Positions 177-5,548 of a stretch of DNA of 5,548 bases are shown piece by piece (position 1 is the first letter of the stretch; every line of letters starts with the position of its first letter). The notes under the pieces were generated by a model. The model was given only the letters and a program-made list of their open reading frames with translations, was not told the DNA's origin and searched no databases. Both the position numbers and the translations under genes were made by a program. Source of the stretch: a virus (taxonomy: Duplodnaviria > Heunggongvirae > Uroviricota > Caudoviricetes); IMG/VR virus record IMGVR_UViG_2529292977_000015, one strand, 5' to 3'.

Positions 177-257
177 ACTGGATTCCAGTATAATCACTAA
201 GTGGAATCCACTTCAAGCGTTTTGTTTTGGTCTTTTTCGTGTATACTGGATTCCAGT
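177..257. promoter_or_regulatory. Operator array: three palindromes ACTGGA-T-TCCAGT (177-189), AGTGGA-A-TCCACT (200-212), ACTGGA-T-TCCAGT (245-257), overlapping -10-like hexamers
   Basis: Read directly: 6-1-6 inverted repeats sharing the core TGGAWTCCA, centres at 183, 206 and 251. TATAAT at 189-194 and TATACT at 242-247 on the plus strand. On the minus strand TTGAAG, an 18-nt spacer and TATACT (plus coordinates 192-187) form a divergent promoter candidate with the middle palindrome in its spacer. Confidence 0.45.
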
Positions 258-277
258 AATCACAAAGGGAACCAGAA

Positions 278-457
278 ATGGAAAGAGACCATATCAATAA
301 CAAATCACAGAAATTACAGGCTCGCGCCCCGCATGAAGTTGTTGAGGCTATGGAGCAAGTAAAAGAAACAGGCGAGAGCACTGCGCAATTTATCGTTACA
401 GCCATGCGAGGCGAGATCAAACGCCGCCAGCGCCGCAAGGCCAAAGAAGCGGAATAG
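278..457 (+). CDS. Small ribbon-helix-helix (CopG/Arc/Mnt-like) DNA-binding protein, 59 aa; absent from the supplied ORF track
   Basis: ATG 278 with AAGGGA 7 nt upstream, stop TAG 455-457. Translation MERDHINNKSQKLQARAPHEVVEAMEQVKETGESTAQFIVTAMRGEIKRRQRRKAKEAE shows a strand-helix-helix pattern and a basic tail. It lies directly downstream of the operator array and is followed by an intrinsic terminator. Confidence 0.5.
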   Translation: MERDHINNKSQKLQARAPHEVVEAMEQVKETGESTAQFIVTAMRGEIKRRQRRKAKEAE

Positions 458-577: not shown

Positions 578-1159
578 TCACTGAATGCGGTTGCCAAAGT
601 AAAACTCAGGCTGATATTCACGTATCAGCCTTTTTTCTTCTTCCTCCAGCTCACGCTTTTTGCGCTTACATGCCTGTAGCTCCCTCCCCTTCTGACTGGC
701 ACTTAACTGATATTGCTCTTTACGGCGAGAAAAGTCCTGTAATGCGCCCCACGGGATACCATAAGCCCCCGTTTTTCTGATTCCTGGTATCACATTCCTG
801 AATACCCAGTTACTGAAACGATGGGCGAACGTGCCAGGAGTAACAGCTTTCCGACTTCTGGCGATCAGCTTGTAAAAACCGGATTCAGAAATGAGGCTAT
901 GATTTGGATTTCCTCGAATACCGTAGCTTAAAGCGACGGTTTTCTTTTCATCCGCATCTAGTGCTTTTAGAGCATCGCGTGAGTTACTTATTTCCAGAGC
1001 AACACAAACATCCTTTGCAACAAACCACGGATCGCCGTTCAGATACACCACGCGAACGTTCACACTATCAAAGCGCAGAACGACCAGATCACGAAAATCA
1101 CAGAATTTTTTTACATGACGTGCGTCACCCTTGCCCGTCACGGCAATATTTTTATTCAT
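578..1159 (-). CDS. Bro-N domain protein (phage antirepressor-like), 193 aa
   Basis: N-terminal motif FRDLVVLRFDSVNVRVVYLNGDPWFVAKDVCVALEISNSRDALKALDADEKK matches the Bro-N signature. C-terminal tail is charged (KRKKRELEEEEKRLIRE). ATG 1159 with GAGGT upstream. Confidence 0.8.
   Translation of the reverse strand: MNKNIAVTGKGDARHVKKFCDFRDLVVLRFDSVNVRVVYLNGDPWFVAKDVCVALEISNSRDALKALDADEKKTVALSYGIRGNPNHSLISESGFYKLIARSRKAVTPGTFAHRFSNWVFRNVIPGIRKTGAYGIPWGALQDFSRRKEQYQLSASQKGRELQACKRKKRELEEEEKRLIREYQPEFYFGNRIQ
608..643 (+). terminator. Second canonical hairpin plus U-tract (terminator-like) lying inside the Bro-N coding 3' end
   Basis: Perfect 9-bp stem AGGCTGATA (608-616) pairing TATCAGCCT (623-631), 6-nt loop, followed by TTTTTCTTCTTCC. 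Confidence 0.45.
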
Positions 1160-1173
1160 TTCTTTTTTACCTC

Positions 1174-1205
1174 ACATACAAAAAACCCCGCATTGCACGC
1201 GGGGT
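1174..1205 (-). terminator. Rho-independent terminator downstream of the AlpA-like gene
   Basis: On the minus strand, stem CCCCGC/GCGGGG (plus 1186-1191 with 1199-1204), 7-nt loop, then TTTTTTGTATGTG. It sits 13 nt after the alpA stop. Confidence 0.6.
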
Positions 1206-1218
1206 ATGAAAGATATTA

Positions 1219-1422
1219 TTAGTGGGGATTGGCCTGTTCTCGTTGTTTATCTAACCATGCTTCTACATCTCTACGGTGCCAGGTATGTCGTCGTCCAATT
1301 CTGAACGGCTGAGGAAAACCATTATTCTCATCTTTCCAGAAATTGATGAATGCACTCATTGCTCCATATCGCAAGATTTTCATTACGTCTTTAGTAAATA
1401 AAATATCTTCATTGGTATTCAT
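1219..1422 (-). CDS. alpA: AlpA-family (excisionase/MerR-like HTH) DNA-binding regulator, 67 aa from the second ATG
   Basis: MNTNEDILFTKDVMKILRYGAMSAFINFWKDENNGFPQPFRIGRRHTWHRRDVEAWLDKQ fits the Phage_AlpA pattern (hydrophobic HTH, FPxP, conserved W, DVEAWL). ATG at 1422 is preceded by GAGGAGG with an 8-nt spacer. The ATG at 1443 listed in the ORF track lacks an SD and overlaps the int stop. Confidence 0.8.
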   Translation of the reverse strand: MNTNEDILFTKDVMKILRYGAMSAFINFWKDENNGFPQPFRIGRRHTWHRRDVEAWLDKQREQANPH

Positions 1423-1435
1423 TTGCTGAACCTCC

Positions 1436-2674
1436 TCAACCATTTACTACTCTTAAACCTTTCATACCACCGGATCTATTAATTACCCCTTTTCTCGCAT
1501 CATCAAAAAAATCACCGACCCATTGCATCATGATCTTACGCTGTTCTAGATAAATAGTTCTATTATAAATATCTCTTATTTTATCACCACTTTTATGCGC
1601 CAATGCAGCCTCGATTACATCGGGGTTAAATCCCTCCTCATTTAAAAGCGTACTCCACATTGAACGAAAACCATGTAACGTTACAATCCCTTTGAACTTA
1701 CTGGCAGCAATTGGGGTCTTGATAGTATTCCTCCCCATAGGCGCATCTTTTGTTCTGGAGGAAAAAAACACATAACGCCCTCTTTTTATTTCCTGCATTG
1801 TTCTGAGGATACTAATAGCCTGTGATGACAAGGGAACAACATGTTCACGATGGCATTTCATTTTATGCGCGGGGATAATCCACAAGCCAGAATCAAAATC
1901 AATCTCTGACCACTCTGCTTTAATCGCCTCACCTGGCCTGACCATTGTCAATATCTGGAATAAAAGTGCATTATGAGCTATTTGATAGGTATGAGGCACA
2001 CTATCCCACCAGCTCAGAAATTCAGGCAATCTTTCAACAGGTAGTGCTGCTAATGATTTATTTTTCTTTCCTGTGAATGCAGTCTTTATCTTAAGTAATG
2101 GATTTGCTTTCAATGCTCCACAATTTACAGCATAATTCATAATTTCATTTAATCTTGATATTAATTTTTTTTGCAACGCATTCTTATCGGATACGGCATC
2201 CAGAGCATTAATAGCTACTGGTGCTGTAATTTTTTCTATACTGTACTTACCAAAGAAAGGAACAAGATATTTGTATACTTCATATTCGATATTATACAGC
2301 GTAGGTTTCCGCAATTCAGATCCCTTTTTAAAAGCGAACCATGCATTAGCAACAGCTTCAAATGTCTGTAGATTTTTTAGTGACATCTCAATTTTACGAT
2401 TTTTCTTCTCCGTCACTGGATCAACTCCACGTGCAATCATTCGCCGAAGTTCATCACGTACTTCCCGTGCTTCCGCGAGTGAGAATTCAGGAAAACGTCC
2501 TATCGTGTATGTCTGCCGTTTCTTCGTTATCGGATGGCTATAACGGAAACGCCACACTTTCCCACCGGCTTTACTCACATTCAGCAATAAACCGAACCCA
2601 TCATAAACGGCATAGTCCTTTTCACGTGGTTTCATCCCCTTAACTTCAGTCACGGTTAATGGCTTTACCGACAT
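1436..2674 (-). CDS. int: Tyrosine-type site-specific integrase, P4/CP4-57-like, 412 aa
   Basis: N-terminal arm-binding-type region (GKVWRFRY...FPEFSLAEAREVRDELRRMIARGVDP). C-terminal catalytic region HGFRSMWST... and AHKSGDKIRDIYNRTIYLEQRKIMMQWVGDF closely resembles the P4 Int C-terminus. GAGGG SD 6 nt before ATG 2674. Confidence 0.93.
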   Translation of the reverse strand: MSVKPLTVTEVKGMKPREKDYAVYDGFGLLLNVSKAGGKVWRFRYSHPITKKRQTYTIGRFPEFSLAEAREVRDELRRMIARGVDPVTEKKNRKIEMSLKNLQTFEAVANAWFAFKKGSELRKPTLYNIEYEVYKYLVPFFGKYSIEKITAPVAINALDAVSDKNALQKKLISRLNEIMNYAVNCGALKANPLLKIKTAFTGKKNKSLAALPVERLPEFLSWWDSVPHTYQIAHNALLFQILTMVRPGEAIKAEWSEIDFDSGLWIIPAHKMKCHREHVVPLSSQAISILRTMQEIKRGRYVFFSSRTKDAPMGRNTIKTPIAASKFKGIVTLHGFRSMWSTLLNEEGFNPDVIEAALAHKSGDKIRDIYNRTIYLEQRKIMMQWVGDFFDDARKGVINRSGGMKGLRVVNG

Positions 2675-2835
2675 CTATCGCCCTCATTTTTTAGTCCGTC
2701 ATGTAGTCCATTCAAGCCAATAACAAGCGATAAACTAACTCATTATCAAGCAAAGAGAGGAAACTCATAAAATCACAACTCATTGAAAAGACTATGAAAC
2801 GACACCAGAACATACAAACAGGTAAGAAATGTACC

Positions 2836-3843
2836 CTACATCCAAAATGACGCAATCCGGGAGTTTCGTGGCGTTCCGGTGATACTGCCGTCCGCCGCCG
2901 CCCGTTCACCTTCACGAAGCCAGATCCCCTGGTTATTCAGTTCGCGTTTCTGCTCAGGGGCAATCAGCCCGCGACAATGCGGACACATCAGACGGGCAGC
3001 CTGACCGGCAGCCACAAAATCCGGGTTATTCCGGTATCCGGTCATGTTATCCATCACCGGCTGAAAATATTCCCCGCAGTGCGGACACGGCCAGTACCAC
3101 CGGCGGCGGTCTCCCCGGTTATACAGTGACAGGATCCCCGTTGTTGGCGGTGCCTCATGTGCGCCACCACAACGCCATTTGGTATCGGTGATATCCCGCC
3201 CCGGTGAACTCTCGACCAGGGTCATCCCCGAGGACATAAAGGTGGTGGTACGCTTTGAGGCCAGCGTGAAGGCATCCCCTTCCCCGTCCACATTTTCAGG
3301 GAAACGGTCATAATCCGTCAGCGCCACACGACGGTAATCCGAAGAGGAAAAGACGGTGATCGACGGCCAGCCAATCTTCAGGAAGGAGCCGTCAAGAAAC
3401 ATTTTATCGTGGACGTTGTTGTCATTACGGGAAGGACTGAGGCGCTTGCTGACCTCCGGACTGTGGCGAAACGTCCTGGAAAGACGCGTTCTGGAATGCT
3501 CACGCGCCTTCGTCTCAGTCATCTGCACCACCAGCATATCCGCCGGATCACAGATGATGCCGTACACAATCCAGCCATCAATCAGCCCTTCGGTTTTCCC
3601 GGTTCGCGCAGGTCCCACAAACACCACCGCGTCATATTCACGGGCTGATAATGTATTAATGGGGTCAATCATATAGGGCGTCAGCGATGACTCCCACGGA
3701 CCGGAAGTATTGGCTCCCCGTGGAACCCGCATATAACGCCTGATGGCTTCCGCTACTGGTAACCGGCTGGGTGGGCGAAACAGCGAGGCCACTTCGCGCC
3801 AGATATCGGATGCGCGGCTATGGCTCTCGTTCACCTGATTCAC
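2836..3843 (-). CDS. Terminase large subunit (lambda GpA family), N-terminal fragment of ~335 aa, truncated and probably a pseudogene
   Basis: Walker A VFVGPARTGKTEG and Cys motifs WPCPHCGEYFQ and MCPHCRG align with lambda gpA. Full-length gpA is about 640 aa. Similarity runs to ...RIASFW, then M and TAG at 2836-2838. GTG start at 3843 overlaps the Nu1 stop. Confidence 0.85.
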   Translation of the reverse strand: MNQVNESHSRASDIWREVASLFRPPSRLPVAEAIRRYMRVPRGANTSGPWESSLTPYMIDPINTLSAREYDAVVFVGPARTGKTEGLIDGWIVYGIICDPADMLVVQMTETKAREHSRTRLSRTFRHSPEVSKRLSPSRNDNNVHDKMFLDGSFLKIGWPSITVFSSSDYRRVALTDYDRFPENVDGEGDAFTLASKRTTTFMSSGMTLVESSPGRDITDTKWRCGGAHEAPPTTGILSLYNRGDRRRWYWPCPHCGEYFQPVMDNMTGYRNNPDFVAAGQAARLMCPHCRGLIAPEQKRELNNQGIWLREGERAAADGSITGTPRNSRIASFWM

Positions 3844-4316
3844 ATATCGGCCTCATCACAACAGTCAATGACTGCCTTTTCCAGTGTGTCGCGGATCTCA
3901 TCAACCACAATCTGTACTTCATTCAGTTGTGATGCAGTCCACCCCCTGTCCCTCTCCAGCCGGTCAGGCCAGGTTTCCAGTACCTGAACTATCGCTTTCA
4001 CCACGACAGAAAAGGACCGCCTGACATCACTGACTGGCACAAGCTGAACAGTTTCATGCTGAAATTTAAGACGCTCGCGCTCGGACTGATACCATGCCTT
4101 ACGAGCGTGAGGATCCATATCCTCATCTTCGGAAGATGGTGGTTTTTCCAGCAACGAAGTTATCAAATCCGTCAGGAGATACAGTTTTTTCTTTTCATTA
4201 CTGCCTGGTGCAAGAGGAACATCCGCCATTCTGGCGGCAACAGTCTGCCGGTGCAGACCTGAAAGGGCTGCCAGTTGATTAATATTTAACTTCATATTTT
4301 TCAGCTCGCCGTCCAT
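3840..4316 (-). CDS. Terminase small subunit, Nu1-like with N-terminal HTH, 158 aa
   Basis: N-terminus MKLNINQLAALSGLHRQTV parallels lambda Nu1 (MEVNKKQLADIFGASIRTIQ). GGAGG SD 7 nt before ATG 4316. Stop overlaps the terL start, in the lambda Nu1-A order. Confidence 0.85.
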   Translation of the reverse strand: MDGELKNMKLNINQLAALSGLHRQTVAARMADVPLAPGSNEKKKLYLLTDLITSLLEKPPSSEDEDMDPHARKAWYQSERERLKFQHETVQLVPVSDVRRSFSVVVKAIVQVLETWPDRLERDRGWTASQLNEVQIVVDEIRDTLEKAVIDCCDEADM

Positions 4317-4405
4317 TTACATCCCTCCACATAAACCGCAGAACAGAAGTGACTCTGTTTTTTTGTAAAGAAATGCCGCCATATAAAGATGTCGAACAAA
4401 AAACA

Positions 4406-4530
4406 ACCACAATCATCATCTTTTTAATACTAACAGCATTAAAAACAACAAGTTACCATCATGATGATGATGACGATAAAATCACAAAAATGCGCCTTTT
4501 TCCGCGCCCGCCCGCCCCGTGTTCAGGCCC
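4406..4530. other. Putative cos region: GC-rich cosN-like core (~4497-4534) and cosB-like inverted ATCATCATC/GATGATGAT repeats (4412-4420, 4463-4471)
   Basis: Minus-strand reading ACGGGGCGGGCGGGCGCGGAAAAAGG resembles the lambda cosN neighbourhood (ACGGGGCGGCGACCTCGCGGGTTTTCG). It lies about 200 nt upstream of the Nu1 start, as in lambda, between the lysis genes and the terminase. Confidence 0.4.
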
Positions 4531-4777
4531 ACCCCACCAGGAGGACCCGCAAAAATGATAATGGTTATCATTTGCAACAAAATCCAGTTTCTTCCACCAT
4601 CGCACCGGACTGGCGACTATGAGGGGACAACACCGCGCTCCGTTAACGCGGTAAACCCCGGTGTGTATCGTTTTTGATTATCCCCGCACACTCGCGCAGA
4701 GGATTCTCCCGGTCGGGCTGCGGTCTCTGTTAATGCAGGAATACGGCGACAATACCGCGCATGAATAATAAGGTCGC

Positions 4778-5002
4778 TCAACACACTGGCTGTAATGCAG
4801 CGGATACCATGCGGCATTTAGCGGCATTCATCGTACACTCAACGGTTAGCTCTTCATTCGTGGCATTCACCTGAAAGGTCCTGGAGTGTAATTGCGTACA
4901 TTTACCACTGAACGAACCTTCAACAAGAACACGACCACGCTGCAAAATACGGAACGGAATTGTTCCCTGAAAAGGCTTTACGGTTACCAATAATTTCTTC
5001 AT
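4778..5002 (-). CDS. Hypothetical protein, 74 aa from the first ATG, directly downstream of Rz
   Basis: ATG at 5002 with GGAGA SD, 23 nt after the Rz stop. MKKLLVTVKPFQGTIPFRILQRGRVLVEGSFSGKC... has ordinary complexity. The ORF track extends it to a TTG at 5020. No family recognised. Confidence 0.4.
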   Translation of the reverse strand: MKKLLVTVKPFQGTIPFRILQRGRVLVEGSFSGKCTQLHSRTFQVNATNEELTVECTMNAAKCRMVSAALQPVC

Positions 5003-5025
5003 GCATTCTCCGAATAACAAAAATA

Positions 5026-5493
5026 CTAGTTAATACACTGAGTGCGGATATATTCCTGAAGCATTCTCAATGCTGCCTGGTCGCTGATGATTCCGTCTCT
5101 GATACCGAGAACGTTTCGTCCAGCAACCGGAGAGAGTTCGACGGCGGCATCATTGCCCACGCCGGAGGTGCCGGTGGCTTCACGCACGGTACCGGGGCAG
5201 GTGGCGTTGATCCGCAGGCGCTTACGACCAGCGGCAACATCAGCACGCAGAGTTTCATTTTCAGCTCTCGCATCGGCTAATTCCCTCGAGTATTTTGCAT
5301 CGAGCGCAGCAACATCACGCTGGCGCACCTGCATGTCAGTAATGGTGGCATTCGCCTGTTCCAGCTCTCTGGCTTTTTTATCGCGCTGCGCTTTGTAGGT
5401 GAGCGCGTTGTCACGGTAATGGTTTGTTGCCAGCCACAGCGCACCACAGCCAACCGCCATGACAATAATCACCACACACAGAACACGGTTCAT
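5026..5493 (-). CDS. Rz: Rz i-spanin (inner-membrane spanin subunit), 155 aa
   Basis: Near-colinear with lambda Rz: ...[70 protein letters not shown]... N-terminal hydrophobic segment present. Confidence 0.9.
5067..5273 (-). CDS. Rz1: Rz1 o-spanin (outer-membrane lipoprotein), embedded in the +1 frame within Rz
   Basis: [22 protein letters not shown]... has a lipobox ending in Cys and the proline-rich [15 protein letters not shown], matching lambda Rz1 (MLKLKMMLCVMMLPLVVVGC...CVKPPPPPAW). Lies wholly inside Rz. Confidence 0.85.
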
Positions 5494-5548
5494 CTCTCTT
5501 TCACCCCACCAGTCCCGATAACGTCAGGACTCGCCAGGCGGTGGAAAA
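5490..5548 (-). CDS. 3' end of an upstream late gene (partial), possibly endolysin
   Basis: Open frame ...[18 protein letters not shown] with stop TGA at 5490-5492 overlapping the Rz ATG (ATGA). The end loosely resembles the lambda R C-terminus (...EAGGTVREIDV). Assignment rests mostly on synteny. Confidence 0.3.

Follow-up and report, generated by a model that had tools for sequence, protein, structure and literature searches.

A probable helper-embedded phage satellite in the large terminase gene of lambdoid prophages from Shiga toxin-producing Escherichia coli

Helper-embedded phage-inducible chromosomal islands (HE-PICIs) were defined in 2023 from one integrase clade, the founder of which is Eco567.11capE (11capE) of Escherichia coli NRG857c (Tommasini, Mageeney & Williams, PMC10111431). 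According to the model developed for these satellites, expression of the interrupted helper gene has to await excision, and the position provides the satellite with passive replication and late transcription; in the case of 11capE/61icd the composite was excised first and then replicated, followed by excision of the satellite (PMC10111431). A second relevant satellite, EcCICFT073, depends on the small (TerS) and large (TerL) terminase subunits of its helper (Fillol-Salom et al. 2018, 2019; PMC6739421) and has been reported to be packaged as phage-length concatemers (PMC10111431). Here we describe a stretch of tailed-phage DNA of 5,548 nucleotides (IMG/VR record IMGVR_UViG_2529292977_000015; "the window") that probably contains the left junction of a helper-embedded, PICI-type satellite, which is inserted in a gpA-type large terminase gene (terL) and would be packaged from its own cos after excision. 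A preliminary description of the window, made from its letters alone, had instead proposed that the inserted element could be packaged from the adjacent prophage cos by a terminase supplied in trans.

The window shares 99.7–99.8% identity with several chromosomes of E. coli O157:H7 and 98% identity with O103:H2. It is read on the minus strand, from position 5548 down to 1, and all genes of interest are located on this strand. The satellite beyond window position 1 was taken from E. coli O157:H7 strain 272 (locus L001), which is another genome than that of the window. As the preliminary description had stated, a cos-like region, an intact small terminase gene (terS) and an N-terminal terL fragment are followed directly by the insert, all on the minus strand (Table 1).

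The insertion splits terL at codon 335, and both halves of the gene are present, which corresponds to the late-gene insertion in a lambdoid prophage that characterizes HE-PICIs. The N-terminal fragment (terL') is terminated by a TAG codon that is supplied by the insert immediately after the attachment core (window 2836-2838), and the C-terminal half (373 codons, with GpA_nuclease) is found in L001 directly after the satellite, followed by portal and head genes. When the two halves were joined in silico at the core, one uninterrupted open reading frame (ORF) of 707 amino acids (aa) was obtained, with the ATPase at residues 45-308 and the nuclease at 330-648; the attachment site thus is located at the ATPase/nuclease boundary. 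Since excision of the satellite would rebuild the 707-aa gene, with the predicted junction ...CGTCATTTTGGATGGAGGGGCCAGC..., the packaging defect is probably conditional: the prophage is packaging-defective, as initially suggested, while the satellite is in place, but the defect appears to be reversible. Among 5,426 complete genomes of E. coli, 495 contain the rebuilt empty terL site (400 bp) without interruption, many of them at 100% identity, and strain Sakai, which lacks the insert, carries the same terL type in Sp15 (a 167-bp terL match is annotated under this prophage). A function of the split terL halves as two polypeptides was also considered and is unlikely, because no Shine-Dalgarno sequence, as read by eye, precedes the Met335 codon, the native Met335 alone being kept by the C-terminal fragment.

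The 7-bp attachment core TTGGATG recurs at the far junction of the satellite (L001 12410-12416), and its position is identical in four E. coli contexts and in Salmonella. When four attL and four attR junctions were aligned, the hexamer TGGATG was invariant, the element side was constant and the phage side diverged; the predicted junction of the satellite circle reads ...TTACTTCTTCTTGGATGTAGGGTACATTT.... A total of 83 genomes contain the segment comprising int and the junction; among the listed cases the match overlies terL in all but one, O121:H19 strain 16-9255. That strain harbors the same satellite, with an identical integrase protein and 99.9% DNA identity across the int region, within another, Qin-like helper prophage; terL and terS of this helper have diverged beyond the reach of megablast, and the match breaks off precisely at the core. 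Relatives of the satellite with 93-95% identity are inserted at the same terL codon in strains C6 and SCU-125, and in Salmonella an integrase of 76% identity lies behind a DUF1441 gene and a GpA_ATPase fragment of 333 aa, the core and the element arm being the same. As judged from the aligned junctions, insertion of the satellite is site-specific, at codon 335 of gpA-type terL, and the occurrence of near-identical copies (99.9%) in different helpers and in serotypes O157:H7, O121:H19, and O103:H2 implies recent movement. No specific description of the O157 element was found in the literature.

The satellite of strain 272 has a size of 10,429 bp, approximately 7.6 kb of which lie past window position 1. 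Its genes comprise, in this order, int, a helix-turn-helix (HTH) gene, Bro-N, YlcI/YnfO, an Icd-like gene, and several small ORFs including DUF4222, followed by a D5_N/DUF5906/Pox_D5 primase-helicase, SSB, a 75-aa ORF, a fusion of a ClpP-type protease with a major capsid protein, and a 93-aa ORF. This arrangement agrees with the layout of Gram-negative PICIs, which are 10–20 kb in size and consist of int, alpA, Bro, primase with origin, and a late zone with cos, without lysis and tail genes (Fillol-Salom 2018; zones according to Tommasini 2023). The HTH_17 match of the AlpA-like protein is weak (E 0.005, below the curated cut-off), and the position of its gene after int is that seen in Gram-negative PICIs (PMC10111431). 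Just upstream of the primase gene (L001 16600-16826), GGTGAACAGT repeats are densely arrayed in direct and inverted orientation, and this iteron array is likely the replication origin of the satellite. Also consistent with the HE-PICI configuration, int, alpA, and the primase gene are co-oriented with the interrupted late gene, all of them being encoded, as are Rz, terS, and terL, on the minus strand, and attP provides no replacement sequence for the interrupted gene (a TAG codon follows the core, and the join restores the 707-aa ORF), so that terL remains split until excision.

Beyond this general configuration, the satellite resembles 11capE in its primase (82% identity), in the order of the Integration, Bro, Replication, and Late zones, in the shared neighbors YlcI, Icd-like, DUF4222, and SSB, and in a cos-like stretch that is common to satellite and helper. 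It differs in its late zone, which holds the protease-capsid fusion, whereas 11capE carries a lambda E-type capsid gene, and in its target: the A-gene site groups accessible in the 11capE paper are in Terminase_1, whereas the present site is the ATPase/nuclease boundary of a gpA-type terL. Neither the label "GpA" nor the core TTGGATG occurs in the portion of the supplementary data of PMC10111431 that was available. With EcCICFT073 (PMC6739421) the satellite shares the int-alpA-...-primase-cos-late layout and the possession of two cos sites with phage-like cosQ and cosN elements; two cos sites per element are therefore not new. EcCICFT073, in contrast, occupies a chromosomal site, has a cosB unlike that of its helper, and redirects TerS by means of Rpp (144-153 aa), whereas the terminal cos of the present satellite has a helper-like cosB side (76-82% identity) and some of its relatives carry a full terS homolog instead of Rpp. 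P4 is similar in its P4/CP4-57-type integrase, AlpA-like protein, D5-type primase-helicase, and Icd-like gene and in its dependence on a cos helper, but the helper is lambdoid here and not P2-like, and a phage gene rather than a tRNA gene is the target. None of the P4 genes sid, psu, delta, and epsilon is annotated in the L001 satellite, and an Rfam scan of the satellite and its flanks (L001 11000-26000) detected no C4/isrK immunity RNA at E values up to 0.1. The capsid-forming PICIs (Alqurainy et al. 2023, cited in PMC10111431) likewise have their own HK97-fold capsid protein with a protease; they are characterized by a complete head module (portal, protease, capsid, connectors) together with terS, terL, and HNH and differ from the present satellite, which has the protease-capsid fusion only (and terS in some relatives) and lacks portal, head-tail connector, terL, and HNH genes. 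Taken by its sequence, the element would be of the HE-PICI kind at a site that was not found described, and outside the published integrase clade.

The region upstream of terS is by sequence a lambda-type cos, with a cosQ element upstream of a GC-rich cosN segment that is located immediately upstream of terS. The pattern GGGTCCT-N24-ACGGGGCGG occurs once in the window (4512-4548, minus strand) and had no match in 200 shuffles. The corresponding right end of lambda is GGGTCCT-N23-ACG/GGGCGG (the slash denotes the left nick); cosQ is identical, the context ACG/GGGCGG of the left cosN nick is common to both, and the spacing is 24 versus 23 nt. The cleavage positions within cosN are placed by likeness to lambda and thus are predicted ones; the mEp460 record matches through cosN but starts elsewhere, and no mapped ends, which in the lambda type are cohesive ends of 12 nt, were found for this phage group. 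On its cosB side, for which binding of TerS may be assumed, the helper cos is 76-82% identical to the terminal cos of the satellite and 39-56% identical to the other cos types compared. The insert starts approximately 1.67 kb downstream of cosN in the direction of lambda packaging. In the preliminary description the unit extended over 2836-4530, an interval that contains the cosN-like segment but misses the cosQ-like element, which lies 12-18 nt past 4530. The small terminase had been named Nu1 there; the 158-aa ORF is indeed full length and the positional equivalent of Nu1, and it matches PHROG 141 ("terminase small subunit", E 6e-66), but DUF1441 is its sole Pfam match, no match to the Phage_Nu1 profile was obtained, and a PDB sequence search for lambda Nu1 with this TerS yielded no meaningful match. 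The unit of cos, terS, and terL' is the packaging module of the helper itself, which is interrupted at the attachment site.

Three co-oriented cosQ-cosN blocks are present in L001, with none expected by chance: the helper cos (window 4512-4541) and two copies within the satellite. The internal satellite cos follows SSB, 8,715 nt downstream of the helper cos (L001 15680-15858), and the terminal satellite cos is located 11,252 nt downstream of the helper cos and approximately 840 bp before the far junction (L001 13101-13321). Terminal satellite cos and helper cos are 95% identical in the cosQ-cosN core, with an indel of 1 nt within the presumed cohesive end. The heptamer GGGTCCT is kept in nine of the ten aligned helper and satellite cos copies, the internal satellite cos being the only one without it. 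C6 and SCU-125 share this three-cos layout; behind the terminal cos, their satellites have a DUF1441 terS of their own. Since the satellite carries its own cos copies, the prophage cos just upstream is probably not needed for its spread. The cosB sides of the two copies within one satellite are only 35-50% identical to each other; the internal cos of SCU-125 shows 87% identity to the cosB side of the Qin-like O121 helper, and the terminal cos of the O157 satellite shows 76% identity to that of the Sp15-like helper. The presence of two helper specificities in one satellite is thus a possibility.

Several further features of the late zone were observed. The two cos copies flank the capsid module in each satellite (also L004 5647-5760 and 8966-9079; L005 6360-6440 and 8900-8980), and the capsid fusion is 52% identical to its counterpart in the helper. 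Satellite-encoded terS genes located after the terminal cos are of the same type as that of the helper, namely DUF1441 in C6 and SCU-125 (L004 5008-5493; L005 5721-6206) and Phage_Nu1 in a satellite of a lambda-type helper (L092 18084-18614); the gene was lost from the O157/O121 satellite, and a DUF1441 stub of 74 aa persists in the Salmonella relative. The 93-aa ORF (L001 12787-13068, minus strand), which is the gene closest to the far junction, belongs to PHROG 1561 of unknown function and had no Pfam and no PDB match. In a satellite with a lambda-type tail region as its target, the same terminal place is occupied by an ORF of 94 aa with 66% identity, and the 93-aa ORF may represent a conserved gene of the satellite late zone.

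In strain 272 the helper is an Sp15-like, stx-negative lambdoid prophage at yehV/mlrA, which is the Stx1-phage site in Sakai. It was mapped from btsS to mlrA (NZ_CP018239.1, ~2,809,450-2,867,070; loci L001, L006, and L007), and its early region contains DLP12-like genes (emrE, ybcK-ybcO, rusA). The helper alone has a size of ~47.2 kb, and the unexcised composite of ~57.6 kb corresponds to ~122% of the helper. An interval of 11.25 kb (~24% of the helper) separates the helper cos and the terminal satellite cos, and the complementary interval of 46.4 kb is helper-sized. Four satellite units of 10.4 kb each add up to 41.7 kb, or ~88% of 47.2 kb.

These data are compatible with the following course of events. 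Upon induction, the composite would excise and replicate. Helper late transcription would then extend past the lysis genes, cos, terS, and terL' and enter int-alpA; it could drive these satellite genes because the terminator scan revealed no terminator-like site between terL' and int and a strong one after the alpA-like gene. Excision of the satellite would rebuild terL, so that complete helper TerL would be made only after departure of the satellite, which would replicate from its own origin. Both genomes would be packaged by the helper TerS, encoded intact upstream of the insertion, and the restored TerL. For the satellite, packaging would proceed from its own cos, the terminal copy of which has the helper-like cosB side, to give multimers in heads of helper size, plausibly tetramers in line with the concatemers reported for EcCICFT073, or molecules in capsids influenced by its own capsid protein. 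By analogy with lambda, the internal copy might start but not terminate packaging, or it may be decaying. In a new cell the satellite would integrate into terL of a resident prophage.

A number of observations weigh against this interpretation. Excision, replication, and packaging of the satellite as well as the gating of terL are inferred. For the model pair of Tommasini et al. virions could not be recovered (PMC10111431). The integrase is only 25% identical to that of 11capE (86 bits by BLASTP), compared with the inclusion cut-off of the HE-PICI clade of at least 400 bits by TBLASTN (Tommasini 2023). The clade is further characterized by a doubled TGTATTGC motif ~81 bp upstream and ~132 bp downstream of the attP center (Tommasini 2023); this arm motif is absent in the rebuilt attP, where one match with one mismatch was found at +250 and none at the expected positions, and membership in the integrase clade therefore fails. 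The internal satellite cos (L001 15796-15858) has diverged further and has the degenerate sequence AGGTACT at the cosQ position. In strain 272 the annotation indicates a frameshift in one satellite ORF, terS is absent from the annotated O157 and O121 copies, and no Rpp homolog was detected by PDB sequence searches with the two small ORFs (93 and 75 aa) located after the cos copies of the satellite, to which this search was confined. Finally, the phage collection contained no virion-derived record with the satellite; its matches were to the terminal cos (~86% to phage cos regions) and, partially, of the primase to an induced Klebsiella element of 16.5 kb.

The frameshifted ORF, the loss of a terS gene that relatives keep, the missing virion record, and the fact that terL is split in every carrier genome seen would also be expected if the element had integrated once or a few times, had become immobile, and had inactivated the prophage, leaving cos, terS, and terL' as a decaying remnant without a role. 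Such a dead insertion is unlikely, however, as all main satellite ORFs and both att junctions are intact, the two terL halves are open and join in frame, and the 99.9% identical copies are distributed over different helpers and three serotypes.

A second alternative is the route proposed in the preliminary description, by which a terminase acting in trans would cut the helper cos and package terS, terL', and the unexcised element, either as part of the composite or as a molecule of 11.25 kb. In its favor, the helper cos, terS, and the element form one contiguous stretch with a common orientation, and a co-oriented cos with an intact cosQ is present 11,252 nt downstream. In lambda lysogens that are unable to excise, packaging proceeds from cos into the adjacent DNA ("doc" particles), which likewise counts in favor of packaging in cis. 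The premise of a terminase supplied in trans has experimental precedent among O157 prophages: Sakai Sp4, in which nu1 is disrupted, is packaged, probably by the terminase of Sp14, with which it shares a near-identical cos (Asadulghani et al. 2009, PMC2669165). That system resembles the present one in that a terminase-defective lambdoid prophage with an intact cos is encapsidated by the terminase of a co-resident prophage, which is the principle invoked in the preliminary description, but it involves whole prophage genomes of packageable size and no inserted satellite with its own cos.

For the present locus the route appears quite unlikely. Packaging of the lambda type tolerates ~105-110% of the genome length, and by this analogy the composite, at ~122% of the helper, would be too large, whereas the 11.25-kb interval is far below the size at which lambda-type termination is accepted unless small capsids form. 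The ends of an 11.25-kb molecule would mismatch because of the 1-nt indel in the presumed cohesive ends of the two cos sites, and the product would carry attL instead of attP. Moreover, the O121 helper is only 39-42% identical on its cosB side to either satellite cos, yet the satellite is embedded there. With its full kit for excision, replication, and cos cleavage the element would not need the route at all. The element may well hitch-hike on the packaging of cos phages, as had been suggested, but a passage via the prophage cos is not supported; given the satellite's own cos copies, the conditional nature of the defect, and the size of the composite, the vicinity of the helper cos looks like a by-product of the attachment site.

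A variant in which the three cos sites make the unexcised composite self-partitioning, so that the terminase of any compatible prophage would begin at the helper cos, halt at the terminal satellite cos, and package the 11.25-kb terS-terL'-satellite segment, perhaps in small satellite-shaped heads, is more doubtful still; if it were true, the satellite would move unexcised together with the helper's packaging-recognition genes, which could explain the cos-terS modules at the right ends of its relatives. That the insertion is kept as a device that benefits the host by disabling virion production of the resident prophage, rather than for transfer of the satellite, agrees with the removal of complete TerL as long as the insertion is in place but is very improbable in view of the transmissible-satellite content (cos copies, capsid gene, replication module) and of the consistent association, across several genera, of related integrases with head and packaging genes, an association in keeping with life as a satellite. 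An embedded satellite that excises and uses its own cos thus remains the probable explanation of the locus.

The remaining features of the window are compiled in Table 1. Rz and Rz1, upstream of cos, mark the end of the helper's lysis cassette. The spacer that separates Rz from cos (window ~4763-5030) is absent or replaced in O157:H7 strain 272 and present in O103:H2 strain 129, so that the window is not identical to the listed O157 genomes in this part; an 80-aa ORF in the spacer matches only the middle part (96-172 of 291) of PHROG 2571. Within the satellite, a two-way hairpin follows the Bro-N gene (window 608-631). The TGGAWTCCA motif yielded six strand matches at three sites, compared to 1.7 expected, and these sites overlap promoter-like hexamers. 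Located between the Icd-like operon and ylcI/ynfO, they would be candidate operators of a regulatory switch of the satellite.

Table 1. Features of the 5,548-nt window in reading order of the minus strand.
Feature	Position	Strand	Characteristics
Rz spanin, helper prophage	5026..5493	-	Pfam Phage_lysis E 1.5e-39
Rz1, embedded in Rz	5067-5273		Pfam Rz1 E 7e-21
cosQ-like heptamer GGGTCCT, helper cos (cos1)	4542..4548	-	identical to lambda cosQ at equivalent position
cosN-like GC-rich segment ACGGGGCGGGCGGGCGCGG, helper cos	4502..4520	-	aligns with lambda ACG/GGGCGGCGACCTCGCGG
cosB-side region between cosN and terS start codon	4317..4501	-	putative TerS binding sites, as judged by similarity to other cos types
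Intact small terminase subunit	3840..4316	-	158 aa; Pfam DUF1441 E 4e-48 (1-146 of 147); WP_000348565.1
terL N-terminal fragment, gpA-type	2836..3843	-	335 codons; complete Pfam GpA_ATPase domain, E 6e-82
Attachment core TTGGATG (attL), invariant part TGGATG	2839..2845	-	repeated at far junction
Satellite left arm and int leader	2675..2838	-	element side constant across hosts, phage side diverges
Tyrosine integrase, P4/CP4-57-like architecture	1436..2674	-	412 aa; Pfam Arm-DNA-bind_3, Phage_int_M, Phage_integrase
AlpA-like HTH protein, putative excisionase/activator	1219..1443	-	annotated HTH regulator; HTH_17 E 0.005
Terminator-like hairpin after int-alpA	1185..1205	-	9-bp stem, 6 GC pairs, T-run; consensus match only
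Bro-N domain protein ("Bro zone")	578..1159	-	Pfam Bro-N E 1e-18
YlcI/YnfO family small protein	278..457	+	RefSeq WP_000439003.1; no Pfam match
Three near-palindromic TGGAWTCCA sites, divergent promoter region	179-187, 202-210, 247-255	.	motif scan
Icd-like gene, first 27 codons	1..81	-	L001 annotation 19878-20081

To place the integrase in a wider context, relatives with identities of 76, 68, 63, 61, 60, 52, 50, and 45% were sampled from Salmonella, Rahnella, Lelliottia, E. coli, Raoultella, and Pantoea (loci L090-L103). All eight are located immediately downstream of, and co-oriented with, packaging or head genes of prophages. Their neighbors include the terL site described here, a further gpA site that follows a fragment of 195 aa, a head protease gene of the Peptidase_S78 type, a Major_capside gene that is truncated, genes of the portal or scaffold type, and tail-proximal ORFs after an FII homolog in a lambda-type late region. 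In most of these cases interruption of the target is deduced from adjacency or truncated upstream ORFs. One of the relatives (P0013) was compared with the 11capE integrase and showed 26% identity (90 bits), and an integrase search of genome contigs retrieved only relatives of at most 40% identity, from marine and Pasteurellaceae genomes. The positions of the eight relatives suggest a second integrase lineage with a tropism for prophage late genes that is distant from 11capE (~25% identity).

The satellite described here would add a gpA-type terL site to those used by HE-PICIs, in the clinically important Shiga-toxigenic E. coli (STEC) lineages O157:H7, O121:H19, and O103:H2 and in Salmonella. 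If the second integrase lineage holds, embedding in a helper would be a recurrent strategy and not the quirk of one clade. Programs that identify prophages and satellites likely mis-call such composites, and STEC prophages that have been scored as terminase-defective may be only conditionally so. Excision of the satellite could control DNA packaging by prophages of the Sp15 type, which is the Stx1-phage type.

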